32,000 nt of DNA from Pseudoalteromonas translucida KMM 520. Lineage in GTDB: Bacteria; Pseudomonadota; Gammaproteobacteria; Enterobacterales; Alteromonadaceae. The stretch lies in contig NZ_CP011034.1 of NCBI RefSeq assembly GCF_001465295.1, forward strand, positions 2,490,001 through 2,522,000. Direction: 5' to 3'. The notes beneath the pieces were generated by a model. The model made no database searches. It was not told the origin of the DNA and saw only the letters and a program-made list of their open reading frames with translations. A program made the position numbers and the translations under genes. Positions 6,220 to 32,000 of this stretch are shown piece after piece (within the stretch, counting starts at the first letter, position 1; each line of letters opens with the position of its first letter).

Positions 6220-6283
6220 TTTTTATCTCTTTATTTAGCAAATCAATTAACGTTACTTTAGCAGTAATACTAATGAATATAAA

Positions 6284-6310
6284 CGAAAAAGCCCGCTATA
6301 AAAGCGGGCT
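6284..6310 (-). terminator. rho-independent terminator downstream of the TonB-dependent receptor gene
   Basis: Minus strand reads AGCCCGCT-tttat-AGCGGGCT followed by TTTTT. Stem halves lie at 6289-6296 and 6302-6309. Confidence 0.7.
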
Positions 6311-6340
6311 TTGTAGTATTTTTGCTATTAGTGTTTAAGC

Positions 6341-8584
6341 TTAAAAGAAGTTAACTTTAAACTCTACACCAACGTAACGCTCTTCATTAACCATTACAGT
6401 ATTATTGTTGAAGTCTACGCCACCAATAGATTGTTGCTCGTCAAATAAGTTACGCACAAATGCTGACACTTGGTATTCATAGTCGCCATCTGCCCATGCG
6501 TAACCGGCACGTAAGCCAGTTTCAACAAGCGGCTTACCTTCAAACTCAACAGATTCATATAAGAAAAAGTTAATTTTGCTACGATAAGAAACGTCACCAT
6601 AAGCAAAGAATTCACCATCAGCTAGCTCTTTGGTATAACGTAATGTGAAGTTAGAAATCCACTCTGGAGCATGCGGTAAGCTGTTGCCATTTAATATAGC
6701 AAGACCTGAACCATTGATAGGGTCAGTTACCGTACATTGTGCACACACAGCTACAGCTAAATCGTTATCTTTAAGCTCAGTTTTGTTATAGCTTAAGTTA
6801 AAGGTAGCATTTAGTTCATCACTTAACACCCACTCAGAATCCAGCTCAAAACCATAACCTGTGGTTTTATCTGCATTAAGTAAGCGGTTAAAGTTAGCAC
6901 CACCACCTACAGCAGTTAACTGTTGATCATCCATAGTGTAGTAAAAAATAGTGGCATTCACACGGCCTTGGCCGTCCAATACGTCTGACTTAATACCTGT
7001 TTCGTACGATGTTACAGTTTCAGTATCTGCTGTTGTTACATCATTACCAAATAAAATACGCCCTTGCAAGCTAGGTGCACGAAAGCTATTAGCAATACGC
7101 GTATACCAGTTTACGTCGTCATTTACTTTATAGCTTGTTGAAATATCCCAGCTAATATGATCATCGCTAACATCGCGGTCTATAAATAACACACCGCCGC
7201 CAATTGGGCTCATAGTACGATCTGCAGAAAATTCTTTTTCGTCGTCTGAATAACGCAGACCTGCTGTTACTTTTAAGTCATCCGAAATAGTGTAATCAAC
7301 TGAGCCAAATACAGCCCATGCTTTAGTATCTTGTTGTTGTCTAACAAAGCCGTTTAACTCGCCCGCAGGTGATGAAAACGTATCATAGCTGAAATTTTCA
7401 ATTGTCAGCGCTTCATCAAAGTAAAACACACCTACTTGGTAGTTTACATCGCCAGCAAAGTTGCTTGATAAACGTAACTCTTGGGTATACTGATCATGGT
7501 CAGGAATACCATCAGCACTTTCTGAAGAAAATGGGATAAAGCCAGGACCTGCAGCGTAACCGCCATCGATATCTGCACGAGAGTATATTTCTGCACTTTC
7601 CCACGCCGAAATAGAGGTTAATGTGTGGTTATTAAAATCCCACTCAAGTTTTAAGCTCGCACCTTCTGATTCAACTTGCTGCGTCGCACGTGACGCCGCA
7701 TCGTGGTAAACCACGTCGTTTTTAAAATCATCAACTAAATCGTTAGTGCCAGGTTTAATTGAGTTTGCGAAAAAGGCAATTGGCTTACCGTCCATATCGC
7801 GTACGTGGTAGTTAAATAAACCAGTGAAGTCATCGCCTTCGTATAAAAACTGAATACGGGCTGCTTTATCTGTGTAGCCGCCTAACGCATCTTTTTGTTC
7901 AAACCCTGGAGCGCGATTATCAATGTAATCGTCTTTATCTTGCCAAAGTACAGATACACGCGTTGATAAACGGTCAGTTAAACCACCGCCTACCGCACCT
8001 TCAAAATCTACAGCGCCACGGCTACCGTAAGATACCGAGCCGTAACCTTCAAATTCTTGGCTTGGTTTTACTGAGTCAAATTTAACAAGGCCCGCAGGCG
8101 TGTTACGACCAAACAAAGTACCTTGTGGTCCACGTAGTACTTCTACACGTGAAACGTCAAATACTGGAAAGCCTTTTAAAATAGCGTTTTCTTGTACTAC
8201 TTCATCTACAACCAATGATACAGGTTGTGATGCGTTTAAATCGAAATCTGTATTACCTAAACCACGTACATAAAAGCGTGGGAATGAACGACCAAATGAA
8301 GACTCAATTGATAAACTTGGGATTTTCGCATTCATAAAACGAATATCCATACCAGCAGAGCTGTAAGCATCCAAGCTATCGCCTTGCAGAGCAGAAACAG
8401 CTACTGGTACTTCTTGTGCATTTTCTACACGTTTACGAGCAGTAACTTGAATAACTTCTAATTGATTTTTCTTTACCGCTGGCACTTGCTCAGCAGCAAT
8501 AGTAGAAAATGAAGTGCCTGCTACGGCAGAGAGTAACGCTGCATTTACTAGGGTTGCTAACGTAGATCTTTTCATTGCTTTCAT
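6341..8584 (-). CDS. TonB-dependent outer-membrane receptor
   Basis: Signal peptide MKAMKRSTLATLVNAALLSAVAGTSFSTIAAE, plug-domain motifs (VLRGPQGTLFGRNT) and a C-terminal aromatic residue (..KVNFF). The start is set at the ATG at 8584 (alternative 8575); the 75-codon upstream extension in the ORF track lacks receptor homology. Confidence 0.9.
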   Translation of the reverse strand: MKAMKRSTLATLVNAALLSAVAGTSFSTIAAEQVPAVKKNQLEVIQVTARKRVENAQEVPVAVSALQGDSLDAYSSAGMDIRFMNAKIPSLSIESSFGRSFPRFYVRGLGNTDFDLNASQPVSLVVDEVVQENAILKGFPVFDVSRVEVLRGPQGTLFGRNTPAGLVKFDSVKPSQEFEGYGSVSYGSRGAVDFEGAVGGGLTDRLSTRVSVLWQDKDDYIDNRAPGFEQKDALGGYTDKAARIQFLYEGDDFTGLFNYHVRDMDGKPIAFFANSIKPGTNDLVDDFKNDVVYHDAASRATQQVESEGASLKLEWDFNNHTLTSISAWESAEIYSRADIDGGYAAGPGFIPFSSESADGIPDHDQYTQELRLSSNFAGDVNYQVGVFYFDEALTIENFSYDTFSSPAGELNGFVRQQQDTKAWAVFGSVDYTISDDLKVTAGLRYSDDEKEFSADRTMSPIGGGVLFIDRDVSDDHISWDISTSYKVNDDVNWYTRIANSFRAPSLQGRILFGNDVTTADTETVTSYETGIKSDVLDGQGRVNATIFYYTMDDQQLTAVGGGANFNRLLNADKTTGYGFELDSEWVLSDELNATFNLSYNKTELKDNDLAVAVCAQCTVTDPINGSGLAILNGNSLPHAPEWISNFTLRYTKELADGEFFAYGDVSYRSKINFFLYESVEFEGKPLVETGLRAGYAWADGDYEYQVSAFVRNLFDEQQSIGGVDFNNNTVMVNEERYVGVEFKVNFF

Positions 8585-8737
8585 GTCGGGGATTAACCTT
8601 TTTAGTGCACTCTTGTTCAACGGTTGATGTGTTGCGCCACTTATAATAGCGGACTCAGGCAATTTTTCGCGATACGCTACGCGGACCTCTTTCTCGAGAG
8701 TGCAAAACGAATTAAAGAGGCTGAATGAGTGGTTAAT

Positions 8738-8746
8738 ATTATAACA
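8738..8746 (-). promoter_or_regulatory. candidate extended -10 promoter element (TGTTATAAT) for the receptor gene
   Basis: The minus strand reads TGTTATAAT about 150 nt upstream of the ATG at 8584. No convincing -35 hexamer is present. Confidence 0.3.
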
Positions 8747-8984
8747 CCCTGACGCTCTTTTACTGCATAAAAGAAACATAAAAAAAACAATTTGTGCAAA
8801 AAAATACATGTCTTAAAATAATTAAAAATAAACCCTTTAAAAAAGCAAAGCAGCGGACATTTGACCTGTTTCAAATCAAAAATATGCACTAGGGGCTTTC
8901 GGGTTTTATATTAAATTTGTTTGACCCTGCGAATAACAATGGCTACCTTATCCGAGCGCTCATACTATTTACTTAAGGATTAAA

Positions 8985-9533
8985 ATGAATCTTACTAATA
9001 CGCTCACCAAAAACTGGGCGGTACTTTTACTTCGTGGTGTTATAGCCATACTGTTTGGTTTAATAACCTGGTTTGCACCTGAGGCATCGTTGCAAGTTAT
9101 GTTATTAGTTTTTGCTGGCTACTTTTTATTTGATGGCATATTAAGAGTTTGGGTTGCCATAGCATCAAAAAAATCGAATCCCTTTTGGATGCTATTATTA
9201 GTTGGTGGCTTACTTAGTATTATTGCCGCTTTTGTCACTTTACTTGCACCAAACCTTACTGCCTTATTGTTACTTTATTATGTTGCTGCGTGGGCTATTG
9301 CAATTGGTGTAGTAGAAATATTTTTAGCCCAAAAGTTACGTAATGAAATTAGTAACGAATGGATTTTAATTATTAGTGGTTTTATTTCTATAATATTTGG
9401 ACTGTACTTAGTATTTAACCCTGGTGCTGGCATTTTAACCTTGCTTTGGTTAGTTGCTGCATACGCTATAGTATTTGGCGCGCTTATAGTTGGTTTAGCG
9501 CTTAAGTTAAAAAAATTAAATCAAAGCCACTAA
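8985..9533 (+). CDS. HdeD/DUF308-family membrane protein
   Basis: 182 aa with six hydrophobic segments. N-terminal signature W..LLLRGVIAILFGLI.W..P is typical of DUF308/HdeD. Confidence 0.75.
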   Translation: MNLTNTLTKNWAVLLLRGVIAILFGLITWFAPEASLQVMLLVFAGYFLFDGILRVWVAIASKKSNPFWMLLLVGGLLSIIAAFVTLLAPNLTALLLLYYVAAWAIAIGVVEIFLAQKLRNEISNEWILIISGFISIIFGLYLVFNPGAGILTLLWLVAAYAIVFGALIVGLALKLKKLNQSH

Positions 9534-18929: not shown

Positions 18930-19613
18930 ATGGCTAAAAAAATACTTATGGTTTTAACCTCACATGCAGAATTGGGCAACACAGGTGAAAAAACAGGTTT
19001 TTGGGTAGAAGAATTCGCAGCCCCTTATTACGCATTTAGAGATGCAGGCGTTGAAGTCACTCTTGCATCGCCAAATGGCGGCCAGCCACCGATAGACCCT
19101 ACAAGTACTCTTGCTGATTTTCAAACTGATGCAACTAAACGCTACGACGCAGACAGCGCCGCACAAACATTAATGGCCAATACTAAAGTGCTTAGTGAAG
19201 TAAATTCGACAGATTTTGACGCGGTATTTTACCCAGGCGGCCACGGCCCATTATGGGACTTAGTAGAAAACACCGACTCTATTGCACTTATTGAAAGCTT
19301 TATTAAAGAGCAAAAGCCAGTAGCGGCTGTTTGTCATGCCAGTGCCGTATTTTTAAATACTAAAGATGCCGATGGCAACGCACTGGTTGCTGGTAAAAAA
19401 GTAACTGGTTTTACTAACAGTGAAGAAGCTGCAGTACAACTTACCGACATAGTGCCACTTTTAGTTGAAGACGAACTAATTAAAAAAGGCGGCGACTATC
19501 AAAAAACAGATGACTGGGGTGTACTTGTACTCGAAGATGGCCTAGTAATTACCGGTCAAAACCCAGCAAGCTCAGAACTTGCTGCTAAAAAGCTACTAAC
19601 CAAACTAGGTTAA
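18930..19613 (+). CDS. DJ-1/PfpI-family (type 1 glutamine amidotransferase-like) protein
   Basis: Nucleophile-elbow Cys in VAAVCHASAVF and GGHGP motif. It is divergent from the LysR gene, a classical regulator-target layout. Confidence 0.85.
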   Translation: MAKKILMVLTSHAELGNTGEKTGFWVEEFAAPYYAFRDAGVEVTLASPNGGQPPIDPTSTLADFQTDATKRYDADSAAQTLMANTKVLSEVNSTDFDAVFYPGGHGPLWDLVENTDSIALIESFIKEQKPVAAVCHASAVFLNTKDADGNALVAGKKVTGFTNSEEAAVQLTDIVPLLVEDELIKKGGDYQKTDDWGVLVLEDGLVITGQNPASSELAAKKLLTKLG

Positions 19614-19630
19614 TAGCGATTTATAAGTAA

Positions 19631-19661
19631 AAAAGCACAGCATTAAATACTGTGCTTTTTT
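19631..19661 (+). terminator. rho-independent terminator
   Basis: AAAAGCACAG-cattaaata-CTGTGCTTTT followed by TT. Confidence 0.8.
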
Positions 19662-19727
19662 AATTGCTTTGCATTAGCAAATACAATTCCTATACTGGCA
19701 ACTATTAAGCTCAACTAGGACGATTAT

Positions 19728-20321
19728 ATGGCAACCAAGCCAACCACACGGTCATTACTAACAAGCAAACGCTTCGCTATTTTTAGTATTGTTACAATTT
19801 GCTTTTTTTTACAGCTAATTAATAGCTTACCTGGCATTAATCTTAATGGTTTTGGCATTTATCCGCGCAGCATTAATGGCTTAATTGGCATACTGTGCGC
19901 GCCATTTTTACATGGCAGTTGGTGGCACTTTGCCAGTAACATGCTGCCTTTTGTAGTTTTAAGTTGGTTGATTTGCCAATACAGTGTTAAGCGTTTTTAT
20001 AGCGTATTTATTTTTACCGCATTAGTAGGTGGCTTTTTAGTATGGGCATTTGGTCGTAGTAATATTCATGTAGGTTTAAGTGGCGTTATATATGGGTTGT
20101 GGGGGTTTATACTTTGTTATGGCGTAATAAGACGTTCATTTAAATCCATTGTTATTGCTGTTGTCGTTGCGCTACTTTACAGCGGATTTGTTTGGGGTGT
20201 ACTACCACAGCGCTTGCATATTTCGTTTGAAAGCCACTTATTTGGGGCGCTAAGCGGATTATTTTTAGGCTATAAATTAGCAAAAGCCGACAAGCTTAAA
20301 AGTCAAAAAACTCGCCTTTAA
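19728..20321 (+). CDS. rhomboid-family intramembrane serine protease
   Basis: Six TM segments, a GLSGVIYG catalytic Ser motif and a downstream His in a TM helix (SHLFGALSG). Confidence 0.8.
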   Translation: MATKPTTRSLLTSKRFAIFSIVTICFFLQLINSLPGINLNGFGIYPRSINGLIGILCAPFLHGSWWHFASNMLPFVVLSWLICQYSVKRFYSVFIFTALVGGFLVWAFGRSNIHVGLSGVIYGLWGFILCYGVIRRSFKSIVIAVVVALLYSGFVWGVLPQRLHISFESHLFGALSGLFLGYKLAKADKLKSQKTRL

Positions 20322-20375
20322 TTTATTTTAATGGCCACATTTATTAATACATGTATTTAAACAGAGGTTATTTTT

Positions 20376-21215
20376 ATGAGTGAGCAAAATCAATACACCC
20401 CACCCAAAGTTTGGACATGGGACAGTGAGAGTGGCGGTAAATTTGCCAGCATTAATCGCCCCATTGCCGGCGCAACTCATGACAAAACCTTGCCAATAGG
20501 CAAACATACATTCCAACTTTATTCGCTTGCTACACCAAATGGTCAAAAAGCCGCGATTATGTTTGAAGAGCTACTAGAGCTGGGCTTAACCGATGCAGAA
20601 TACGACGCATATTTAATAAACATTGGTGATGGCGATCAGTTCGGCTCTGACTTTGTTGATATTAATCCAAATTCAAAAATTCCAGCATTAATGGATCATT
20701 CAACCACGCCGCCAACGCGTATTTTTGAATCGGGCTCTATACTGCAATACTTAGCAGAAAAGTTTGATGTGCTTATACCTAAAGATTTAAAAGCTAAAAC
20801 TGAATGTCGTAACTGGTTATTTTGGCAAATGAGCTCAGCGCCGTACTTAGGTGGTGGCTTTGGCCACTTTTATAGCTATGCCCCCACTAAAATGCAATAT
20901 CCTATTGATCGTTTCACCATGGAAACTAAGCGCCAGCTTGACGTGCTAAATCGCCATTTAAGTGCAAACGAATACATGGCAGGAGATGAGTACTCAATTG
21001 CCGATATCGCAATTTGGCCTTGGTATGGCTCTTTAGTGCTTGGCGACATTTATGATGCAGCTGAATTTTTAGATGTTGCCTCATACACTCATGTTGTACG
21101 TTGGGCTAAACAAGTTTCAGAGCGCCCTGGCGTAAAACGTGGTCGTCGCGTTAACCGCACATGGGGACCTGAAGAAGAGCAACTAGCAGAGCGCCACAGT
21201 AATAACGACTTTTAA
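20376..21215 (+). CDS. yghU: glutathione-dependent disulfide-bond oxidoreductase (Nu-class GST, YghU-like)
   Basis: Near-colinear with my recollection of E. coli YghU: PPKVWTWD...GG.FA.INRP..G.THDKTLP.GKH..QLYSL.TPNGQK, and GGGFGHFY.YAP. Confidence 0.88.
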   Translation: MSEQNQYTPPKVWTWDSESGGKFASINRPIAGATHDKTLPIGKHTFQLYSLATPNGQKAAIMFEELLELGLTDAEYDAYLINIGDGDQFGSDFVDINPNSKIPALMDHSTTPPTRIFESGSILQYLAEKFDVLIPKDLKAKTECRNWLFWQMSSAPYLGGGFGHFYSYAPTKMQYPIDRFTMETKRQLDVLNRHLSANEYMAGDEYSIADIAIWPWYGSLVLGDIYDAAEFLDVASYTHVVRWAKQVSERPGVKRGRRVNRTWGPEEEQLAERHSNNDF

Positions 21216-21580
21216 TCAGATAGCCTCCCCTTTATATAAATTATTATGAAGGGGTTTAATTCAGCCTACCTTTTTAACCATAAAATATATTCCAGCATAA
21301 GTTAGTAAATTTCACTTAGCAACCCCCTAAAATTTATATTAACCTGATGTAATAATCTCCTTCAGTATTGCAAGGTGTCATTCAACGATAGCAGGGACAG
21401 GTTTGCTGTCATATATACGGTCTTTAATGAAGGTTATTACTTCTGACCTTGATGTAATCTGCGCATATTGTTCTGATCAGGTTATATTACATAGCGTAAA
21501 CTAATCGTATTTATTATTTATTACGTAATGGAGTGAGTAATTAATAATGAGGCTAACTCGTTTTTAGGGTTAGTAGTTTT

Positions 21581-22711
21581 ATGCAAAACGATTTAAGCAA
21601 AAAAATAAACATAGTGTGGTTTAAACGCGATTTACGCCTTAGCGATCATCAGCCATTAAAAAATGCATTTAGTAACGGCTTACCTACCCTACTACTTTAT
21701 AACTTTGAGCCATTACTACTTGAAGATGCACACTACAATGAGCGGCATTGGCGCTTTGTATATCAATCTATAATTGAGTTAAACAAGCAACTAGCGCGCT
21801 TTAATGCCTGCGTTTATATATTTAATTTAAACATGGGTGAGCTACTTGAGTCGTTAAAAGCGCAGTTTGAAATAGTGAATATATTTAGCCATCAAGAAAT
21901 AGGTTTAAACAACACCTTTGAGCGCGATAAAGCTATTAAAGCCTGGTGCCAACATAACCAGGTTAATTGGCAAGTATCGCAAACAGGCGCAGTTATTCGC
22001 GGCAAAAAAAATCGTAACAATTGGAATGAGCGCTGGCAGCAAACAATGCAAGCACCTATTGCTGTTCCTAACTGGAAAAACATAAAAACAATTACCCTCA
22101 ATAACTACCAAACACCTGAGCTGCCAAGCGCTTATACGCAAGATCACGACAGCTTTCAACAAGGTGGCCCGCTGCAAGCACGCACTGTAATGCAGAGCTT
22201 TTTTGCCGAGCGTGGCAAGGGTTATCAAAAAGGAATATCGAGCCCAAGTTTAAGCCAAACTTATTGCTCTCGGCTTTCGCCCTATTTAGCCTGGGGGAAC
22301 ATTAGCCTTAGGCAAGTGTATCAAATGGCCTTTGATGAATACCATTCAAAGCATCCTGATAAAAGAGGCTGGAAGCGCCCGCTTGCTGCATTTGTATCGC
22401 GCTTGCATTGGCACTGCCACTTTATGCAAAAGTTTGAGAGCGAATGCTCTATGGAGTTTTTAGCCCTTAATCCGGGGTATCACGTATTTCCGTATCGTGA
22501 TGACGAAAACGTAAAAAGCGATATTGAACGCTGGGCGCAAGGCCAAACAGGTATTCCAATTATTGACGCTTGCATGCGCTGTTTAAAAGCCACCGGTTAT
22601 ATAAACTTTAGAATGCGTGCCATGCTAGTGAGCTTTGTAACGCATCATTTAAATATAAGCTGGCAGCAAGCAAGCTTGCCTCTCGCTAATTACTTTTTAG
22701 ATTTTGAGCCT
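21581..22711 (+). pseudogene. cryptochrome/photolyase-family gene, 3-prime truncated by an insertion
   Basis: Photolyase N-terminal domain (VWFKRDLRLSDHQPL) and FAD-binding domain run up to ...LANYFLDFEP (codon 377, ending 22711). Family members continue with GIHY.Q.QMQ.G and roughly 100 more residues. Here the frame runs into an AT-rich, unrelated 53-codon tail (22712-22873). Confidence 0.8.
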
Positions 22712-22735
22712 GTAAAAGGAATATGTAAAATAAAA

Positions 22736-22891
22736 ACAGGATACTTTTGGAGCGCTTATATCATAAGGGCTAGAGTTAAAATAAGTATCCTGACGAAGAA
22801 TTGTAAAATTTCCTTACAGGATACTATGAAAAACGAATTTTTCGGTCATTCTGAAACCTATAGACTTGGTTAGGATTTAGAACAGGATACT
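22736..22891. repeat. cluster of the 10-mer ACAGGATACT: three direct copies plus one inverted 9/10 copy
   Basis: Direct copies lie at 22736-22745, 22816-22825 and 22882-22891. The inverted copy AGTATCCTGA lies at 22784-22793. All are read directly from the sequence and begin 25 bp inside the homology breakpoint. Confidence 0.85.
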
Positions 22892-22902
22892 AATTGTCAT
22901 CG

Positions 22903-24099
22903 ATGAATAAAATCCATAAAGAAAGAATAAAGGTTGCTATATGGTGGGTCAAGAAAGATTTTAGACTTAATGACAATGCCGCTCTATTTAATGCTTTAGA
23001 GTCGAATAGCATTGTTATACCGATGTACCTTTTTGAACCGCTATTAATGAATGGACCTGATTGGGGTAGTTTTCATACTGAAGCAATAAGTGATGGCGCT
23101 ATGTCACTAAGTAAAAACCTCACTCACTTCAATAGTAAACTTTTAACTTTTGGCTCATCTCCAATTGACGCTGTAGAGCAAATCCGCCAGAGAGTAAATT
23201 TAAGTGGGTTTGAAGTTAAAGAGGTTTTTTCGCATGAATAAACTGGTCTTACACACACATATAAGAGAGATAAAGAATTTAAAAACTGGTGTCAAAACAA
23301 TGGTATTCAATGACATGAATTTACAAATAACGGTGTTATTAGGGGACCTATAGATAGAAATCATTGGGAAAAACGTTTTGTAAAATACATGATGCAAGAA
23401 CGACCAAAATCTCACAAAGGTAAACTTTCTGCCAGTTTTCCTGAAAAATTAAAAAATATATTTCAAGATAAGTTTTATGATAATTCTGAAACTCACAGAC
23501 CCTCTATTTCCGAATCAGAATACATGAACGTAAGCGAACGGTCAGGAAACCTAATACTTAAGGATTTTTTAAATAATAGAGGTCAAAAATACAGGGGTTG
23601 CATTAGTAGTATGAATAGAGCAACTGAAGCTTGCTCTAGGCTATCTGCACAAATTGCGTGGGGCTCGTTGTCTTTAAGAACAGTCTTGCAGGAGTGTGAT
23701 AAAAGAATTGAAGAAATTAATACCAAAGATCCCATCACATCAAAACATTGGAGGTTTAGTTTAGTAAATTTCAGGTCTAGGCTTTTTTGGCATTCACATT
23801 TTGTTCAGAAGCTCGAAAATCAAGTTGATATGGAGTTCAATGCTGTAAATAAAGCATTTAGAAGTGGCTTGCCGTGCATCTATGCGGAAATCGACAATTG
23901 CGAGCACAATAAACGTTTAGAAGCATGGTTACATGGGGAAACAGGGTTCCCAGCTATCGATGCAGCCATGCGTTATTATCAAAGATATGGATGGCTTAAT
24001 TTTCGATCTAGAGCAATTATTACTAGCTTTGCATGTAATGCGCTTAGGTTGCCATGGCAAACGGTCCTATACGAACTGTCGGAAGACAATAATGTTTGA
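22903..24099 (+). pseudogene. second, divergent cryptochrome/photolyase-family gene with two in-frame stops and a 3-prime truncation
   Basis: ORFs 22894-23241 and 23389-24099 share one frame. The stretch between them translates as TGLTHTYKRDKEFKNWCQNNGIQ*HEFTNNGVIRGPIDRNHWEKRF, colinear with the upstream copy. TAA at 23239-23241 aligns with Glu and TGA at 23311-23313 aligns with Trp. Homology ends near ...PWQTVLYELS. Confidence 0.8.
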
Positions 24100-24302
24100 A
24101 ACTTTTTTGCCTTCCCAGTCCGTTCCTTTCGTGTCAATAGAAGGTATGTATGACAATAAAGATCAAAACTTAGATTCAATCAACGTGCCTATCCAAAGAA
24201 AAATTGTGACAACAAAGATTAAAACTCACTTTTGGACAAAAACGTTTCTGAGCCGAATGACAGCTCTGTGCCATAAGCGGTCATTGGTAATACCTCAATA
24301 AT

Positions 24303-24364: not shown

Positions 24365-24992
24365 CTATTTTTTTTCGCATACACCACACTTAATACAGTA
24401 GCCATGTGGGTCTTCATTTATATAATCAGCAGGATTTGGGATATTAAGGATGTATGAATTAACACAACTAGACTTTTTAAATGCCTTGATGCCAGACTTT
24501 TCAAGTAGAGAAGAAAACTCTAGCATCTTACGTGAAATATTAATTTCGTAAGATTCACCAGAAGTACAATCTAAAACCTGTTTATCACCACTAATCTCTA
24601 TTTCCAAAGAGGCATCAGGCAACTTAAAAAGCTGAGCTTTAATTATTTCATCAACGAATAGATCACCAACCACACAATGCTCTACGCCAAATTTATTAAA
24701 AACCTTAATAAAACTATTAATCTCAAGATCAGTAATACCTGATAAGAATGGTTTGACCATTACATTTGTTGATACTCCGTTATCTCTTAATTTTTTTATA
24801 CTCTTGAGCCTTAATTCAGGCTTATCAGCATAAGGCTCAATTTCCCTGCTTCTACTAAGAGTGCTAACAGACGTTGAATAAAGTATTTGCCCAGCATAAG
24901 AATTACATTTCACAATACCCTCGACAACATCATCACTCAGCTCATATCGACTCATTATTTGTATTGGATTTTTTAGCTTTGCTAGCTCGCTT
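24365..24992 (-). pseudogene. radical-SAM protein remnant (COG1533/SplB-like), lacking its N-terminal CxxxCxxC region
   Basis: The pattern ILYSTSVSTLSRSREIEPYADKPELRLKSIKKLRDNGVSTNVMVKPFLSGITDLEI fits the distal half of the radical-SAM barrel in the COG1533 family. No Fe-S cluster motif is present, and the frame is cut at 24992 by the IS3 left end. The apparent GTG start at 25018 lies inside the IS inverted repeat. Confidence 0.5.
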
Positions 24993-25069
24993 TGTAGTGG
25001 TACAGTGATTTTGGCCACCCATTAAGAAAGAAATGTTATGCTAATAAGCATACAAATTTGGGTGAAAAA

Positions 25070-26250
<1,181 letters not shown>

Positions 26251-26258
26251 CCACTACA

Positions 26259-26351
26259 GTTTCTGTACCAGAACGTTGTGTCTTATGTATTGGTCAGGCA
26301 TCAACATATTACTATGTCCAAATAGTTTCTTTAAAATCAAAATTGATAACG
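26259..26351 (-). pseudogene. stranded C-terminal segment of the downstream tyrosine recombinase (carries the catalytic Tyr)
   Basis: The minus strand reads, in phase with 28757.. once the IS66 is removed: (TLS)ILILKKLFGHSNMLMPDQYIRHNVLVQK. This is the LGH....Y box II tail of tyrosine recombinases. No stop is reached before the IS3 end at 26258. Confidence 0.75.
26344..26351. repeat. IS66 target-site duplication, left copy (TGATAACG)
   Basis: Identical 8-mer at 28757-28764, immediately outside the IS66 inverted repeats. Confidence 0.9.
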
Positions 26352-26431
26352 GTGAGCGTCCGGCAAATTGCGTCTGACAAATTAATCTCAACTTAAGTAA
26401 GTTACAACCAAACAATTATTTGGAGTAACTT

Positions 26432-26731
26432 ATGAGAATTATGCGCAGCCCAGAGCAATGGCAAACCATCATCCATGAACAACAATCAAGTGGTTTAACC
26501 ATCATTGATTATTGCCGGCAACATCAATTATCAATGACTAGCTTTTATGCGGTAAGAAAGAAACTCGGCCTATCATCGAATAATTTCGTTCGCGCCAAAA
26601 TTACACAGCAAGTCGAAATAGTTGATGAACAACCATCCATCACGTTAACTGTTGGCAAGGCAAACGTTAGTTTGCCAGCCACAACCTCTGCAACGTATTT
26701 AAGCCAGTTACTACGCGAGTTTGTTCAATGA
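26432..26731 (+). CDS. tnpA: IS66-family accessory protein TnpA (orf1)
   Basis: 99 aa, first gene of the IS66 trio. Its stop overlaps the tnpB start (ATGA). Confidence 0.8.
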   Translation: MRIMRSPEQWQTIIHEQQSSGLTIIDYCRQHQLSMTSFYAVRKKLGLSSNNFVRAKITQQVEIVDEQPSITLTVGKANVSLPATTSATYLSQLLREFVQ

Positions 26732-27075
26732 AAATGTTTGTTGAGCCGTCAGAGGTTTTTCTGCATCGGGATTTTGTCGACTTTCGAAAAAGTATTAATG
26801 GCTTAGTGAGTATTGTTGAAGATGAGCTTGTTCGCGATGCCTATACCGGTACGTTGTTTGTATTTTGTAACAAGGCCAAAGATAAGCTGAAAATTCTATA
26901 CTGGGATAAAACAGGGTTCGCGCTTTGGTATAAACGACTTGAAAAGCAAAAATTCAAATGGCCAAGTAAACTATCGAGCCAGGAATTTGAATTAACCTAT
27001 CAACAACTGGATTGGTTGTTATCTGGATATGACGTGCTTGGCCATGAACCGCTGCACTATCAGTCACCGATCTAA
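26728..27075 (+). CDS. tnpB: IS66-family accessory protein TnpB (orf2)
   Basis: 115 aa with the conserved IS66 Orf2 pattern DFRKSINGL...V......G.LFVF.NK..DKLKIL.WD..GF.LWYKRLE. Confidence 0.88.
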   Translation: MKMFVEPSEVFLHRDFVDFRKSINGLVSIVEDELVRDAYTGTLFVFCNKAKDKLKILYWDKTGFALWYKRLEKQKFKWPSKLSSQEFELTYQQLDWLLSGYDVLGHEPLHYQSPI

Positions 27076-27171
27076 CTAGATCTTTTATCAGTCAACGATC
27101 GTGTACGCAAGTCCTTATTCTATTTGCGTTACAAAGCAGAATCATCTGTCTGTTCTTGCTAAACTCGATGG

Positions 27172-28734
27172 ATGAAAATTGATACTAACTCACTCCCTGA
27201 CGACCCAGAACAACTCAAGCAAATGTTGCTTGAGTTGCAGGCTGAAACTACCCAAGAGTTAGCGAAAAAAGATAAAATCATCAGTGAACAAGCCATTCAA
27301 ATTAATCAGTTTATTGAACGCTATGAAATTGCCAAGCGTAAACAGTTTGGTAAAAGCTCCGAGCAACTCCCGGGGGCGGGGGAAACCTTCAATGAAGCGG
27401 AAGAAATCATTGATGAGGCCGATAAAACGTTATTAGCTGCGGCTGATAGTCACAGTAAGGTCACAATTAAAAACAAACCGACGCGCAAGCCACTGCCAAA
27501 AGAATTACCTCGAAAAGTGGTGACAATTGATTTGTCCATTGATGAAAAAGTGTGTGATTGTTGCCAAGGTAAGCTGCATAAAATTGGTGAAGCTCGTAGT
27601 GAAAAACTTGAGTTTGTTCCTGCGTACATCAAAGTGATAGAGACAGTTCGACCGAAATATGCCTGTAAAAGGTGTGAGCAAACTGGCACAGAAAATTCTA
27701 TAAAAGTTGCACCTGTTCCAGCAACCCCCATTCCTAAAGGCATTGCCACCAGTAGTTTGCTGAGTCAAATCATCAGCGCCAAATATCAATATGGGTTGCC
27801 GCTATATAGGCAAGAAAAAATGTTCAATGAGTATGGTATTGAGCTGAGTCGTAAAACCATGTCAGATTGGATAATACGGTGTAGTGAATTACTGATGCCA
27901 TTAGTTAACGAGCTAAAAGCAGCATTGCTTAGTCAAGCGGTGCTCCATGCCGACGAAACGCCCTTAAAGGTGATTAAGGCCGATAATAGCAGCAGTTACA
28001 TGTGGGTGTATTGTTGTGGTAGCGATTCGGTGGCCGCCAATAGTTTGCCAAATATTATCCTCTATGATTATCACAACTCTCGTGCCGCAGCTTGTGTAGT
28101 TGATTACCTTGGTGACTATGACGGTTACCTGCAAGTCGATGGTTATGCAGCGTACGGAAAAACAGATGCAATATTGGCAGGTTGTATGGCGCATGCACGT
28201 CGAAAATTCATTGATGCGAAAACGGTGCAAACGAAAAACAAAACCGGCAAAGCCGATGTTGCCTTAAGTCTTATTAGAAAACTCTACGGCATTGAGGCAA
28301 GCTTAAAAGACAAAACGGCCGCAGAAACGTATCAAGCACGGCAGGAAAGTTCAAAACCCATCATCGATAAACTTCACCATTGGATTATCGAAAATAAAGA
28401 TAAAGTGCCACCGAAAAGTAAACTTGGTGAAGCGATTACGTATTGGTGTAACCAAGAACATAAGCTCATCACCTATTTAAAAGATGGTCGCATAAATATA
28501 GATAACAATCGCGCTGAGCGGGCTGTGAAACCGTTTGTGATTGGCAGAAAAAACTGGTTATTCTCCAATACCGCGCGGGGTGCAACGGCTAGCGCCGTGC
28601 TCTATAGTATTATTGAAACCGCGAAAGCGAACGGACTGTTGGTCGACAACTATTTGCAAACCTGCCTAGATGAGCTTGCTAAAAAGCCTGAAAGTGTAGA
28701 GCACTTGCTACCTTGGAATGTTAATCAAGGCTAG
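27172..28734 (+). CDS. tnpC: IS66-family transposase TnpC
   Basis: 520 aa with an N-terminal coiled coil, a zinc-finger region (CDCC...C.RC), and a DDE core (HADETP..., QVDGYAAY, ...NNRAERA.KP...GRKNWLF). Confidence 0.92.
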   Translation: MKIDTNSLPDDPEQLKQMLLELQAETTQELAKKDKIISEQAIQINQFIERYEIAKRKQFGKSSEQLPGAGETFNEAEEIIDEADKTLLAAADSHSKVTIKNKPTRKPLPKELPRKVVTIDLSIDEKVCDCCQGKLHKIGEARSEKLEFVPAYIKVIETVRPKYACKRCEQTGTENSIKVAPVPATPIPKGIATSSLLSQIISAKYQYGLPLYRQEKMFNEYGIELSRKTMSDWIIRCSELLMPLVNELKAALLSQAVLHADETPLKVIKADNSSSYMWVYCCGSDSVAANSLPNIILYDYHNSRAAACVVDYLGDYDGYLQVDGYAAYGKTDAILAGCMAHARRKFIDAKTVQTKNKTGKADVALSLIRKLYGIEASLKDKTAAETYQARQESSKPIIDKLHHWIIENKDKVPPKSKLGEAITYWCNQEHKLITYLKDGRINIDNNRAERAVKPFVIGRKNWLFSNTARGATASAVLYSIIETAKANGLLVDNYLQTCLDELAKKPESVEHLLPWNVNQG

Positions 28735-28756
28735 ACGCATTTGCTCAGACGCTTAC

Positions 28757-28764
28757 TGATAACG
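28757..28764. repeat. IS66 target-site duplication, right copy (TGATAACG)
   Basis: Identical to 26344-26351. Confidence 0.9.
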
Positions 28765-30202
28765 TGCTATTTGTTCCAATATATCCAGCAAGCGTTGCTC
28801 TAATGCAGTGGCATGTTCCTTCTTCATCTTCTTCACTAATAGTTTCAAGCTTGATATTAAATCGCTTTGCAAAAGCACTTAGTCGCCTATTTATAGTGTT
28901 GCCGACTCGACATAAGTTGTCATTATTGTTATGAGGTCCATGTGCAAAGGAGAATAGTCTATTCTGCACGAGAAAATTACTATCCTTGGAATAATTAAGC
29001 AGCTTCAGTAATTTTATCGCCTGAATACATGGCTCACCAATAGGAATGTAAATAGTATTCCTAGTTTTCTTTACTTGACACTCGAGAAACCATATTTTGT
29101 ATTGTTTACTATATTTTAAGCAATCAGTCTTTAGATTTCTAAGATCAACGTTTCTTAGTCCCGTTGACAATAAAACCACCCATAGCGCTCCGCTCTGGGC
29201 TATCGAAAAAAGCTCTGTAAACCATTCCGCATTAATTGACTTATCGTACCAATCAAACTCACTTTCCCTCAAATGGTCTTCTTGTTTATGATTTAGTTCC
29301 ACTAAGAAATTTTGTTCTTTATAAAGTAGTTTTTGAAAGCATTCATCACGTGTAAAGAAAGTATTCAGGTTAGTATAATTGCGTCCTTTAAAATATTTTA
29401 ACCTAAGTCTTTTAATCAAGGTTAGAAACGCTACTATCGGCAAACTCTTGTCTTCGTTAGAAAGCTCAATTCCGTGTTCTGGTGAAACGCTAATTCCTTG
29501 ATAAAGTTTGGATGCACTCTTTACAATTCCAGATATCGTTTCTTCAGAAAATGAAGAATATGGTTTTCTATTACTTACTACTTTATTTTCAATAGTATTG
29601 CACGAATTTGTCCACGTTTGTGATGTGACACCCTCGTGTGTCCACGGTGTCAAAAATCCCGACAAGAAGATCTGCAAATCTTCAAATTTTTGGGCTTTTT
29701 CTAGCGTACTCAAAGCACTAGTATAATTATCACTTACTTTGTCTATTGATTTATTAGTTATCATCAAATACAAATCGTGCACACCAAGCTCAGCCAATGA
29801 TACCCATGGCGCGTTTTTCTCTGCACTCAATATAGGATTTGGTAAACCAAGTAACTGAGGGCAAAATGAAGTAATCAAATAAGTAACTTTTCCGTAGACT
29901 GTCCCGTGGCTGTAATTAAGAACTTTCATACAATAAACTATAAAAATTTTTAAAAGTACTATTAGCGGTAACGCAGATTGGTGCTTGTAAAGAGACTCAA
30001 AGATAAAAGGCTTTGAAAAAGAATCTTCTGTTGGGATCAGCCATGTTTTGTCCTCAAACTTAGAACTCGTTATTGATGAAATATCCATTTTTTCATATTT
30101 TTCAGTCAGTAGAGATAACATCTCCCATTGCTTTTTACCTATATCAAAACGACTTTCGTTAGGCGCTTCAATCACAATTTCTTGTGTTTCATTTTTATAC
30201 AT
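28757..30202 (-). pseudogene. large atypical tyrosine recombinase, 3-prime end interrupted by IS66
   Basis: Recombinase motifs are present: box I LLSTGLRNVDLRNL, a beta-hairpin Lys region VKKTRNTIYIPI, and HxxR as CHCIRATLAGY. The ORF-track tail LSVSV* is read from the IS66 end. The likely start is the ATG at 30202, 6 nt after GAGG; the alternative GTG at 30214 overlaps the upstream stop as GTGA. Confidence 0.8.
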
Positions 30203-30210
30203 ATTGCGCC

Positions 30211-32000
30211 TCACAGTATTGGGGGTAACATTGGTTGGTCTTTTGATTCTGCAGATCTTGCTAGCACAAAACCTTGGTCTACTATAAGATCTCCATCTGG
30301 GTGGTCGTTACGAAATTTTTCTAGACAATCAATAGCTATTGCTTTTCTATCGGCTATTATTTCATTAGTTGGAGAGGGCATATTTTCATATTGTAGTATT
30401 CTGAAACATATCCTAGGGATATGCTCTGCAAAAACAACGCTACGCTCACAACCTAAGCAGAGGTCATAAAGTTTACACTTTCCTGCAATAGGAATATCGT
30501 GTGTTGGTTTTAGAGGGTCTTTGCAATCACAAAGATATACCGGAACATTTTCTAACGACTTATCATTCGTGTGTCCAATACTCCCCTTGAACTCCAAGGC
30601 TTCTTCGAACATTTTATTTGTTAAAGCAAGAACAGCACTACTGTACACAAAGTTACCAACGCCTGTTTTTAAAATATAATTACACATAGTAGTATCAAAG
30701 TTATTATGATTTAGTGCGTCTCTCAACTTACGGGCGAGATCGGCGGCGTTCGACGTTGAATCAAGTAACTGCACTAAACTTGTAGCTGCATATACTTTCC
30801 TGAGTTTTCTAGAATCTATATATGTTAATTGTTTTATGTTTTCGTCATAAATTGGAAATCGCTTACAGAAGGCAGCTATGTCTGAACCAATATTATTCGT
30901 GCCAATAAAATATGCCGAATTGTTGTCAGAGAAAACAGATTCCCATAAATCTAACACGTCATAGATAAAAGAGTTAACGGGGACTCGTAAATCAATATTT
31001 TTAGATACTACCCCCCTCGTCTTTTTACCAGTTACTCTTAATACTGTTTGACTGAGTATTTTTTTCGCATCAACACCCAGCTCGATATCTGTGCGATTTT
31101 TCCAGTGCAACAAATCATACTGTCGCAATAGAGATGTAATCGATTGTCTATTAAAACCAGTCTGACAAATTAACAATAGAATTATAGCGGCTTCATTGGA
31201 CGGGAAAGTTAACAAATAAGTTCTTTTGAATTCAATATAACCTTCCATATCCCCTCGTTCGTAGAGAGCCGAAACATATGCCACAAAATCGTCTTTTAAC
31301 TCTTTATTAATTCCCTTTCTATCTAGCTTTTTAATTATATGCCTAAAGAAATGGTCTCTGGCGTACAATTTCTGCTTAGAAAACGGAGTATTGAATTTAA
31401 TAGACTTAGCGAACACCAAGAAATTTTGATGTAAAAGTATCAATGCCTCATTCTTTTGGGTTTTGTATAGTTCAATTATTCTATACAACGCGGAACTCTC
31501 AACCGGATTTTTGTGATTTTCAAATTCTTGTGCCGAAATAAGATAACCTCTTTCTTCTAATTCATGTTCATCAACACTTACAAGCCAACCCCAACGTTCT
31601 TTTATAAAATTAAATTGATAGGTCGCATAACCCAATAACTGCATTAAAACTGAATCGTCATAAGTGTTACTCTCGAAGATATTTTCAACATTGGCGTCGA
31701 AGCTTTTTTTATCAGTTATTTTTTTAATACTTATTGATCTTGGAAAATTAGAGGGAAAAATATAGCTTAAAGTACTCGCTTCCGTGTTCGCTAATCGCTG
31801 TTTTTTAAATTCTACTATTTTAAATTCATCAATTTCAGAGATACTGCTAATATTAAAATGTTGAATACAAAACGTAATAAATTTTGAAAGGGTGTCATAT
31901 GTAGAATTTAATTTTTTTCTGCTTGATACAGAAGATACTGCCCATTTTGAAAATAATGTTGCAGCTATTTCTCGCAAATCTCTATGCGGATCTGTTTGAT
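30211..32000 (-). CDS. large atypical tyrosine recombinase with a Cys-rich C-terminal extension (5-prime end beyond the window)
   Basis: Motifs are ICQTGFNRQS (box I Arg), GKKTRGVVSKNIDLRVPV (Lys hairpin), SRKLRKVYAATS (box II Arg, with RxxR in place of HxxR) and LNHNNFDTTMCNYILK. The Tyr codon is at 30676-30678. The frame stays open upstream of the listed TTG start through position 32000 (..QTDPHRD-LREIAAT), so this CDS is partial. Confidence 0.75.
   Translation of the reverse strand, partial: QTDPHRDLREIAATLFSKWAVSSVSSRKKLNSTYDTLSKFITFCIQHFNISSISEIDEFKIVEFKKQRLANTEASTLSYIFPSNFPRSISIKKITDKKSFDANVENIFESNTYDDSVLMQLLGYATYQFNFIKERWGWLVSVDEHELEERGYLISAQEFENHKNPVESSALYRIIELYKTQKNEALILLHQNFLVFAKSIKFNTPFSKQKLYARDHFFRHIIKKLDRKGINKELKDDFVAYVSALYERGDMEGYIEFKRTYLLTFPSNEAAIILLLICQTGFNRQSITSLLRQYDLLHWKNRTDIELGVDAKKILSQTVLRVTGKKTRGVVSKNIDLRVPVNSFIYDVLDLWESVFSDNNSAYFIGTNNIGSDIAAFCKRFPIYDENIKQLTYIDSRKLRKVYAATSLVQLLDSTSNAADLARKLRDALNHNNFDTTMCNYILKTGVGNFVYSSAVLALTNKMFEEALEFKGSIGHTNDKSLENVPVYLCDCKDPLKPTHDIPIAGKCKLYDLCLGCERSVVFAEHIPRICFRILQYENMPSPTNEIIADRKAIAIDCLEKFRNDHPDGDLIVDQGFVLARSAESKDQPMLPPIL

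Follow-up and report, generated by a model that had tools for sequence, protein, structure and literature searches.

The stretch of DNA analysed here (the window; 32,000 nucleotides (nt) of Pseudoalteromonas translucida KMM 520, contig NZ_CP011034.1, positions 2,490,001 to 2,522,000) contains a cryptochrome/photolyase-family gene that breaks off within a conserved motif, and the break, at 22712/22713, is very likely the recombinase-distal junction of an integrative element of a rare family, with genes A, B, C and D in that order, that entered the photolyase gene by site-specific recombination. We observed a precise junction, a reciprocal junction in a second species, a conserved four-gene module with two complete tyrosine recombinases, a terminal motif shared by family members and the decay of the copy in the window. 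An initial annotation, made from the sequence alone, had pointed to this position.

The interrupted gene appears as a 430-residue (aa) open reading frame (ORF; 21581–22873, + strand), in which Pfam DNA_photolyase (PF00875) matches residues 11–136 (60.2 bits) and FAD_binding_7 matches residues 271–378. The latter match ends at position 107 of the 203 in the profile, which is also what the Pfam check proposed in the initial annotation gives as the end of homology. With the N-terminal DNA_photolyase domain present and the FAD_binding_7 domain incomplete, the protein is a truncated member of the cryptochrome/photolyase family. In a search of 5.8 billion proteins, the closest homologues were Pseudoalteromonas cryptochrome/photolyase proteins of 503–509 aa that are 94–96% identical, and the best 120 homologues span only 86–87% of the query, with the similarity stopping at ...FLDFEP. 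The tail that follows in the window (VKGICKIKTG...) is absent from all of these 120, in line with the earlier view that it is foreign and not an orthologous C-terminus. In full-length homologues the motif runs on past FEP and is followed by ~126 more residues (the initial annotation had expected ~100). The closest intact allele, from P. nigrifaciens (L005–L008; loci retrieved for comparison are numbered L and proteins P), reads GATTTTGAGCCTG/GAATTCACTAC where the window reads GATTTTGAGCCTG/TAAAAGGAATATG (slashes here and below mark junctions). The last host base is thus 22712, the first after codon 377, and from 22713 onward the DNA is foreign; the initial annotation had put the end of colinearity at codon 377 and 22711, right to within 1 nt. 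Beyond 22712, the window DNA has no similarity to the intact photolyase gene. The crossover lies inside the codons of the invariant motif FEP/GIHY, at GAGCCTG^GAATTC, dividing the ORF as follows:

21581–22712 (+): 5´ portion of the host cryptochrome/photolyase-family gene (Cry2/DASH-like), codons 1–377 plus 1 nt, recognised by Pfam, protein homologues and DNA identity to intact alleles.
22713–22873 (+): tail that the ORF gains by reading through into element DNA (53 codons and a stop), with no counterpart in homologues.

That the 430-aa protein is a natural short photolyase isoform with its own C-terminus has in its favour an ORF that stays open for 430 codons. However, the tail occurs in none of ~8,000 homologues and is encoded by element-end DNA, and the FAD_binding_7 domain is cut at 107/203, leaving this explanation with a practically negligible probability. 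The cryptochrome/photolyase gene of this genome is a pseudogene by insertion, not a short isoform, and without its last 126 residues, half of the FAD-binding domain, it is very probably inactive.

The G+C content is ~0.40–0.41 to the left of the junction versus 0.35–0.38 at 22.5–25 kb and 29–32 kb, with the intervening insertion sequence (IS) elements at ~0.41–0.42. The right side, previously described as more AT-rich and full of mobile-DNA genes, indeed combines this G+C drop with an IS3 element, an IS66 element and recombinase genes, the IS elements themselves being the part that is not AT-rich. No tRNA or tmRNA gene was found anywhere in the window with ARAGORN; with the junction in FEP/GIHY and relatives of the element in coding motifs (see below), the proposal that the target is a conserved coding motif and not a tRNA gene holds, and does so for the family as a whole.

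The complementary half of the junction was found in a second Pseudoalteromonas. The gene A ORF at the right edge of the window (588 aa, cut by the window end) is 97% identical to a 673-aa protein (P0121) and had only seven homologues in the indexed search. The P0121 contigs (L009–L011) carry four consecutive genes, A (673 aa), B (732 aa, Phage_integrase), C (330 aa) and D (463 aa, Phage_integrase). On L009 and L010, a 123-aa FAD_binding_7 fragment is encoded on the opposite strand 118 bp upstream of gene A, and this fragment is the missing photolyase 3´ part (IHYPQIQMQ...); L011 ends after its first ~30 residues. The L009 junction, which reads ...TTTACGTATTT/GGATCCACTACCCG, splits the Gly codon after its first G; it complements the window junction exactly, and no base is duplicated or lost. 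Over 3,244 bp of genes A and B, the DNA of L009 is 98.8% identical to that of the window, and the L009 photolyase 3´ part is only 74% identical to the P. nigrifaciens protein. A nearly identical element next to a diverged host remainder means that two Pseudoalteromonas species carry the same element at one and the same nucleotide of this gene, the signature of site-specific integration. By projection from L009, the proximal end of the window copy is predicted at ~32,328, ~328 bp past the window end, where the DNA should read ...TTTACGTATTT/GGAATTCACTACCCGCAAAT (also written ...AGTAGCCTATTTTTAATATTTACGTATTT/GGAATTCACTACCCGCAAAT) and continue into the last ~126 photolyase codons and then, as in L006, into DUF2256 and OsmC genes. 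The orphan 3´ remainder that the initial annotation had expected to the right is thus seen adjoining the same element in L009 and L010, and is not visible in the window, given the predicted end beyond position 32000.

The end of the element at the window junction was identified by its match to the opposite end. When the proximal 50 nt of L009 were aligned with the whole window on both strands, the top match was 22720–22752 (+), with 27 of 34 positions matching and a score of 36 versus 30 for the next, and the terminus of a second family member (L021) gave the same top match. The orientation of 22720–22752 is inverted relative to the proximal end, as expected at a junction, and 22713 is therefore taken as the recombinase-distal terminus of the element. 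Gammaproteobacterial members have proximal ends with the common motif CAAAATACGTAAA-N10-(A/T)GGATACTATT directly abutting host DNA; the distal repeat in the window carries the same family motif as CAAAATACGTAAA-N10-GGATACTATT, and the element terminus is a ~30-nt imperfect inverted repeat of CAAAATACGTAAA-N10-GGATACT. The features at this end are:

22713–22719 (no strand): TAAAAGG, 7 nt separating the distal terminal repeat from host DNA, read from the sequence, a possible spacer or footprint.
22720–22752 (+): distal terminal inverted repeat (AATATGTAAAATAAAAACAGGATACTTTTGGA), the best window match to the L009 proximal end.
22737–22891 (no strand): four exact copies of CAGGATACT (22737+, 22784−, 22817+ and 22883+), candidate accessory recombinase sites, with four in 155 bp versus one in the other 31.8 kb.

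A TAAAAGG-like spacer has no match at the module-proximal junction of L009. With attL as GAGCC[TG]TAAAAGG and attR as CGTATTT[TG]GATCC, only TG is common to the two, and at the junctions that could be compared with an intact gene (photolyase and peptidase M49), identity between element and target is limited to CA/TG. The alignment to uninterrupted relatives suggested in the initial annotation thus fixed the junction at 22712/22713, while the flanking direct repeats that it might have revealed are absent. We also noted that, in the frame of the interrupted gene, the gammaproteobacterial terminal motif CAAAATACGTAA encodes Q-N-T followed by a stop (L012, L021–L023, L026, L029 and L032), so that the 5´ target fragment is terminated at once, and that the betaproteobacterial subfamily has a different terminus, reading (E/D)-F-T.

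A non-specific rearrangement, in which an IS- or transposon-mediated deletion or inversion fused the photolyase gene to unrelated DNA and the position in the motif is coincidental, could also have produced a broken gene. IS3, IS66 and a transposon-end-like module all lie within 1.4–6 kb of the junction, and an IS3-linked deletion did happen within the element. Nevertheless, no IS end abuts 22713, the sequence at 22720–22752 is the inverted counterpart of the L009 proximal end, and in another species the opposite end of this element meets the complementary gene half at the identical nucleotide, all of which make a chance fusion very improbable.

The window copy has decayed. The features from the distal end to the window end are:

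22903–24076 (+): phr´, a photolyase-family pseudogene carried as cargo, with in-frame stops at 23239 and 23311 and its 3´ end missing (Pfam DNA_photolyase; FAD_binding_7 positions 1–92 of 203).
24077–24290 (+): ~210-bp module truncating phr´, starting with TGT and containing three 20-nt direct repeats (at 24085, 24152 and 24208).
24365–25018 (−): C-terminal fragment of a PA0069/Rv2578c-type radical SAM gene (SplB-like), its 5´ end cut by IS3 (NCBIfam rSAM_PA0069 profile positions 145–248 of 348, E 5e-11).
25020–26258 (+): IS3-family insertion sequence (orfA 25058–25381, orfB 25420–26250), delimited by its ORFs and by gene B homology resuming at 26259, with an approximate left boundary and a deletion to its left.
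26259–26351 (−): 93-bp middle fragment of gene B (...LSILILKKLFGHSNMLMPDQYIRHNVLVQK), holding the catalytic H...Y and 98.9% identical to L009 13469–13561.
26352–28756 (+): IS66-family insertion sequence (tnpA, tnpB, tnpC) inside gene B, with the 8-bp duplication TGATAACG; the two L009 matches overlap by 8 bp.
28757–30214 (−): two-thirds of gene B, from its 5´ side; the intact gene encodes a large tyrosine recombinase (~732 aa; Phage_integrase, PHROG integrase).
30211–32000 (−): gene A, 588 of ~673 codons, cut by the window end (97% identical to P0121; 98.8% DNA identity to L009).

The last two of these correspond to two large minus-strand ORFs at 28745–32000, the first of which matches Phage_integrase and PHROG integrases. 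IS3 now connects B with the radical SAM fragment; B has therefore lost its end, C and D are missing entirely, as is most of the cargo, and the window copy is a ~9.6-kb remnant that is no longer able to move by itself. The left border of an integrated element proposed in the initial annotation is therefore an element junction, as claimed, albeit the recombinase-distal end of a decayed remnant and not the edge of an intact island.

The phr´ pseudogene starts 190 bp inside the distal end in the same reading direction as the interrupted host gene and is a single frame with two stops, 31–37% identical to the host gene. Its nearest relatives, at 74–75% identity, are intact, ordinary chromosomal genes of 531–534 aa in other bacteria, and ~80 bp of native upstream DNA accompanies phr´. 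The last two CAGGATACT copies sit in DNA homologous to this native upstream region of phr´-type genes, in which the motif is not conserved. Two origins for phr´ were considered and rejected. It is not the 5´ half of a previous host's target, as the terminal repeat lies outside phr´, which has its own start and a native-type upstream region, nor was it cut by a second copy of the same element, as the repeats at 24077 are of another kind and the DNA there corresponds to a 210-bp plasmid-borne module. In a separate observation, one phr´ relative (L046) lies within a cluster of three photolyase genes together with a DPRP gene.

The 210-bp module begins TGTCGGAA, has repeats of the GACAATAAAGATCAAAACTT type spaced 67 and 56 bp apart and starts exactly where phr´ homology stops. 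It is present on 67 plasmids (Pseudoalteromonas, Vibrio and Enterobacterales), always with the same sharp 5´ boundary, and is unannotated there. No Rfam match was obtained for the module, and no tns genes were found near the four plasmid copies examined. We tentatively take its layout to recall a Tn7-family left end, and its position 25 bp upstream of the VP/GIH site of phr´ is, we presume, at the distance and in the orientation expected for TnsD-type targeting. With a second mobile module in the window thus having interrupted phr´ 25 bp short of the motif that is split in the host gene, a single coding landmark may attract unrelated elements. In P. translucida TAC125, plasmid pMEGA has three 210-bp modules and an annotated IscB RNA-guided endonuclease gene (L043 993–2372), with none of the modules adjacent to it. 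The radical SAM fragment is the C-terminal two-thirds of a protein whose family is often annotated as DNA repair photolyase or SplB-like; because it adjoins the photolyase pseudogene, a cluster of DNA-repair-type cargo may have existed at this place until the IS3 deletion.

Several observations weigh against assigning 22713 to the distal end of this element. The inverted-repeat match (27/34) is modest for AT-rich DNA, and no distal end was found in related loci by a simple pattern or by local alignment of each proximal end to its downstream DNA, where nothing rose above shuffled controls. A metagenome scan for the distal repeat gave one chance match, in unrelated AT-rich coding DNA. In addition, the proximal end and 3´ remainder of the window's own copy lie beyond the window, excision and a circular form are predicted for family members by analogy only, and the interior between phr´ and gene B has been deleted or replaced beside IS3. 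This last point would also fit two related elements in tandem or nested, with the distal end and phr´ (22713–24076) derived from one, A and B from the other, and the two fused by an IS3-linked deletion. Moreover, phr´ was itself cut by another inserted module 25 bp upstream of its own VP/GIH site, and no phr´ is present within the 12 kb of L009 that was readable. The best match of the distal repeat, on the other hand, is to the proximal end of this very element lineage, the predicted total is only ~9.6 kb and the window has no second recombinase module. We consider two elements unlikely and treat the remnant as a single element below.

The core module is arranged A, B, C, D inward from the proximal end, with cargo following. 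Catalytic residues were examined in 18–22 homologues and counted as conserved at ≥90%. In protein A, an invariant Asn (N361) replaces the first catalytic Arg, while K404, R478, H509 and Y519 are conserved, and the C-terminus has a Cys/His cluster. Protein B has the full set (R354, K383, H469, R472, H496 and Y505; conserved in 20 homologues) and a C-terminal Cys cluster; the intact B of L009 matches Phage_integrase at 32.1 bits, above the cut-off. Protein D also has the full set (R217, K257, H348, R351, H393 and Y402; Phage_integrase 28.3 bits), and C is a 330-aa P-loop protein with a Walker A motif (AAA_33, 35.2 bits). No sequence match for A was found in Pfam, NCBIfam or PDB, a profile search of PDB included. 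The top Foldseek match to an AlphaFold model of A was a staphylococcal integrase (3nkh_A, probability 0.98, E 0.034); as the model is only moderate (pLDDT 65), this integrase fold is supporting and not decisive. Given that the core protein A is without a Pfam or NCBIfam match, the element would escape detection based on tRNA genes or known integrases.

We rate GInt, SE and Tn554 as the closest known systems and the element as a variant of the multi-recombinase kind of integrative element that is not a member of GInt or SE. GInt elements carry ginABCD, encoding three integrase-type proteins, of which GinC is without the first Arg, and a small protein, and they insert into or at the ends of conserved genes such as ssb, ribonucleotide reductase and ABC transporter genes; duplicated target genes, including an insertion at a duplicated ribonucleotide reductase gene, have also been noted (Bardaji et al., 2017, PMC5385486). 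The element shares with GInt the three tyrosine-recombinase-type genes at one end reading inward, two of their products with the full catalytic set (B and D) and one without the first Arg (A), as well as variable cargo and a short AT-rich far end. It differs in gene order (A, B, C, an optional 250-aa protein with a RecD2-like helicase, then D), in having no small HLH/TnpC-like GinD protein, in junctions that share ~2 bp compared with the 10–11-nt imperfect direct repeats of GInt, and in inserting in the middle of a catalytic motif. SE elements (strand-biased circularizing integrative elements, with copy-out behaviour in which a circle forms and no empty site is left) have the core intA-tfp-intB-srap and imperfect terminal inverted repeats (PMC10214605, PMC9345347), and the SE papers place them on plasmids such as pSEA1. 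Clustered tyrosine-recombinase-fold proteins including a non-canonical one, imperfect terminal inverted repeats, the lack of conjugation genes and target specificity without a long shared core are common to SE and the element, and the extra 7 nt at the distal junction may match the 6-bp footprint of SE. In contrast, intA, tfp, intB and srap are not recognisable in the element, and SE are reported only from Gammaproteobacteria whereas the element family also occurs in Betaproteobacteria, Zetaproteobacteria and Sulfurovum. Tn554, like SE, resembles the element in an element–target identity of ~2 bp rather than a long core, but the element is set apart by its gene content, with a third recombinase-like protein and the P-loop protein C and no small TnpC, and by its targets and its hosts (Pseudomonadota compared with Bacillota for Tn554).

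The element could, however, be a GInt or SE that was missed by annotation. Three tyrosine-recombinase-type proteins at one end, one of them Arg-less as described for GinC (PMC5385486), and imperfect terminal inverted repeats with gene-internal targets, as in SE and GInt (PMC10214605, PMC5385486), would fit. For a direct comparison we used a four-gene operon (397, 599, 645 and 149 aa) of Klebsiella pneumoniae plasmid NZ_CP093487.1, which is GInt-like by layout only. Protein D resembles its small, 397-aa integrase (29% over 123 aa, E 2e-11), while B gave a BLASTP E of 0.76 with the 599-aa protein and the A profile an hhalign probability of 0.15% with the 645-aa protein. Because A and B are thus without detectable similarity to the GInt-like operon, and gene order and content differ, with the Arg-less protein first, a 330-aa P-loop protein in place of the small GinD/Srap/TnpC-like protein and an optional helicase, the element was not assigned to GInt or SE. 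Neither A (E limit 1e-5) nor B (E limit 1e-3) had a tblastn match among 72,556 plasmids, and an exhaustive HMMER profile search found only 107 A-family proteins among 1.84 billion representative proteins. A missed GInt or SE is accordingly quite unlikely; the A-B-C-D elements would represent a third lineage beside these two, one whose recombination module includes a P-loop protein and in some cases a helicase. No report of this module, or of photolyase genes as attachment sites, was found in our literature searches.

By analogy with GInt, SE and Tn554, B and D would carry out strand exchange between a circular attP, predicted to read TTTACGTATTT-TG-TAAAAGGAATATGTAAA, and the target, both for integration and for excision. 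The Arg-less protein A, with its zinc-finger-like tail, and the P-loop protein C may be essential accessory or targeting factors, as suggested by the extra genes in GInt and SE; in GInt, SE and Tn554, every gene of the cluster is required. The distal-junction TAAAAGG may represent an SE/Tn554-type footprint. This P-loop/helicase variant could be useful for working out the mechanism of multi-recombinase elements.

Other classes of elements resemble this one in strategy. The dusA-specific islands (PMC8409611) likewise use conserved protein-coding sequence, not a tRNA gene, as attachment site; they have a single integrase and restore the reading frame from island DNA, whereas the element splits its gene in the middle of a domain without restoration and has, in three cases, a separate gene paralogous to its target on board or alongside. 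Tn7, through TnsD and the coding end of glmS (attTn7; PMC2918618), also exploits an ultra-conserved coding landing pad usable across hosts. The likeness is one of strategy only, as Tn7 has a DDE transposase and inserts outside the gene, and no relationship is claimed. Unlike tRNA- and tmRNA-targeting islands, the element has its junction in a protein-coding motif.

A scan of one genome per species (185,579 species) identified the family at 23 genome loci, in Alteromonadales (Pseudoalteromonas, Glaciecola, Alteromonas, Colwellia and Psychrobium), Betaproteobacteria (Methylotenera, Gallionella, Sideroxydans, Undibacterium and Deefgea), Mariprofundus and Sulfurovum. The module is also kept in several metagenome loci, and overall spans Gamma-, Beta- and Zetaproteobacteria as well as Sulfurovum. 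In nearly all loci of sufficient length the order A, B, C, D is preserved, and in about half the 250-aa protein and RecD2-like helicase genes lie between C and D. Where host DNA beside the proximal end could be read, it was usually a conserved gene cut within a conserved motif. The targets, apart from the photolyase gene, are:

Methylotenera and Gallionella: RecQ, in Walker A at ...K/GGKSLCYQLPALL (K/GGKSLCYQ), with the DEAD profile starting at position 51.
Two Pseudoalteromonas and one Psychrobium: peptidase M49, at NTMFHEVA/H.
Glaciecola: DUF5117 protease, after AHEVG.
Undibacterium: ribonucleotide reductase, after ...APTGTITLAFA, the barrel profile being cut at 395 of 523.
Glaciecola (L021, L022), Alteromonas gracilis (L023) and metagenome contigs (L012–L016): a gene without assigned identity, cut after VYIQSSIHGAEV (SIHGAEV).
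L017–L019, and L030 and L038: DUF808, at two different positions.
Sideroxydans (L035), an uncultured betaproteobacterium (L039) and Deefgea (L040): a gene starting M-x-R-R-Y-D-L-I-V-F-D and cut after this D, resembling HAD motif I by eye.

Several of these conserved-motif targets recur in different genera. P0122, at 57% identity the nearest distinct relative of A, does not lie in a photolyase gene; together with the other targets, this indicates that each lineage has its own site but that all have in common the choice of a conserved coding motif for it. In Gamma-, Beta- and Zetaproteobacteria, recombinase-driven islands can thus land in enzyme genes at the most strongly conserved stretches, which serve them as portable sites.

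For some targets a second gene copy is present. In L017–L019, a full-length DUF808 gene follows D and is 55% identical to the truncated host copy (L017 1797–2594 and 12313–13308), and in L024 a full-length M49 peptidase gene just after D is 65% identical to the truncated host fragment (8111–9262 and 19073–20743). Such paralogues of target genes in or beside the element, found for three target classes, could be compensating cargo or, in L024, a chimeric restoration, and they suggest a testable compensation strategy. We tentatively propose, as a possibility that falls somewhat short of even odds, that the family forms a previously undescribed class of multi-recombinase elements (A-B-C-D, the helicase being optional) that home to DNA encoding catalytic or cofactor motifs of conserved enzymes and possibly offset the damage with a diverged target paralogue (phr´, the DUF808 copy in L017 and the M49 gene in L024). 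The motifs concerned would be FEPGIHY of photolyase, Walker A of RecQ, HExxH of M49 and DUF5117, ribonucleotide reductase and possibly HAD motif I. If this is true, homing motifs would provide tRNA-like target conservation across genera.

The Undibacterium member interrupts the gene for the large subunit of ribonucleotide reductase (L036 7868–9370). As this enzyme is normally essential, a second copy or restoration is implied, and neither is visible in the L036 locus.

Finally, the neighbourhood upstream of the photolyase gene also differs between close species, as judged from the interval to a GST-like gene, which is ~6 kb in P. nigrifaciens (L005/L006 3871–10000), where it holds genes for an EF-hand protein, a two-component system, a YHYH protein and a flavin reductase, and ~365 bp in the window (21216–21580). 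A Trp operon leader (6283–6377, − strand), unrelated to the insertion, is the only feature of the window that Rfam recognises above the gathering score.

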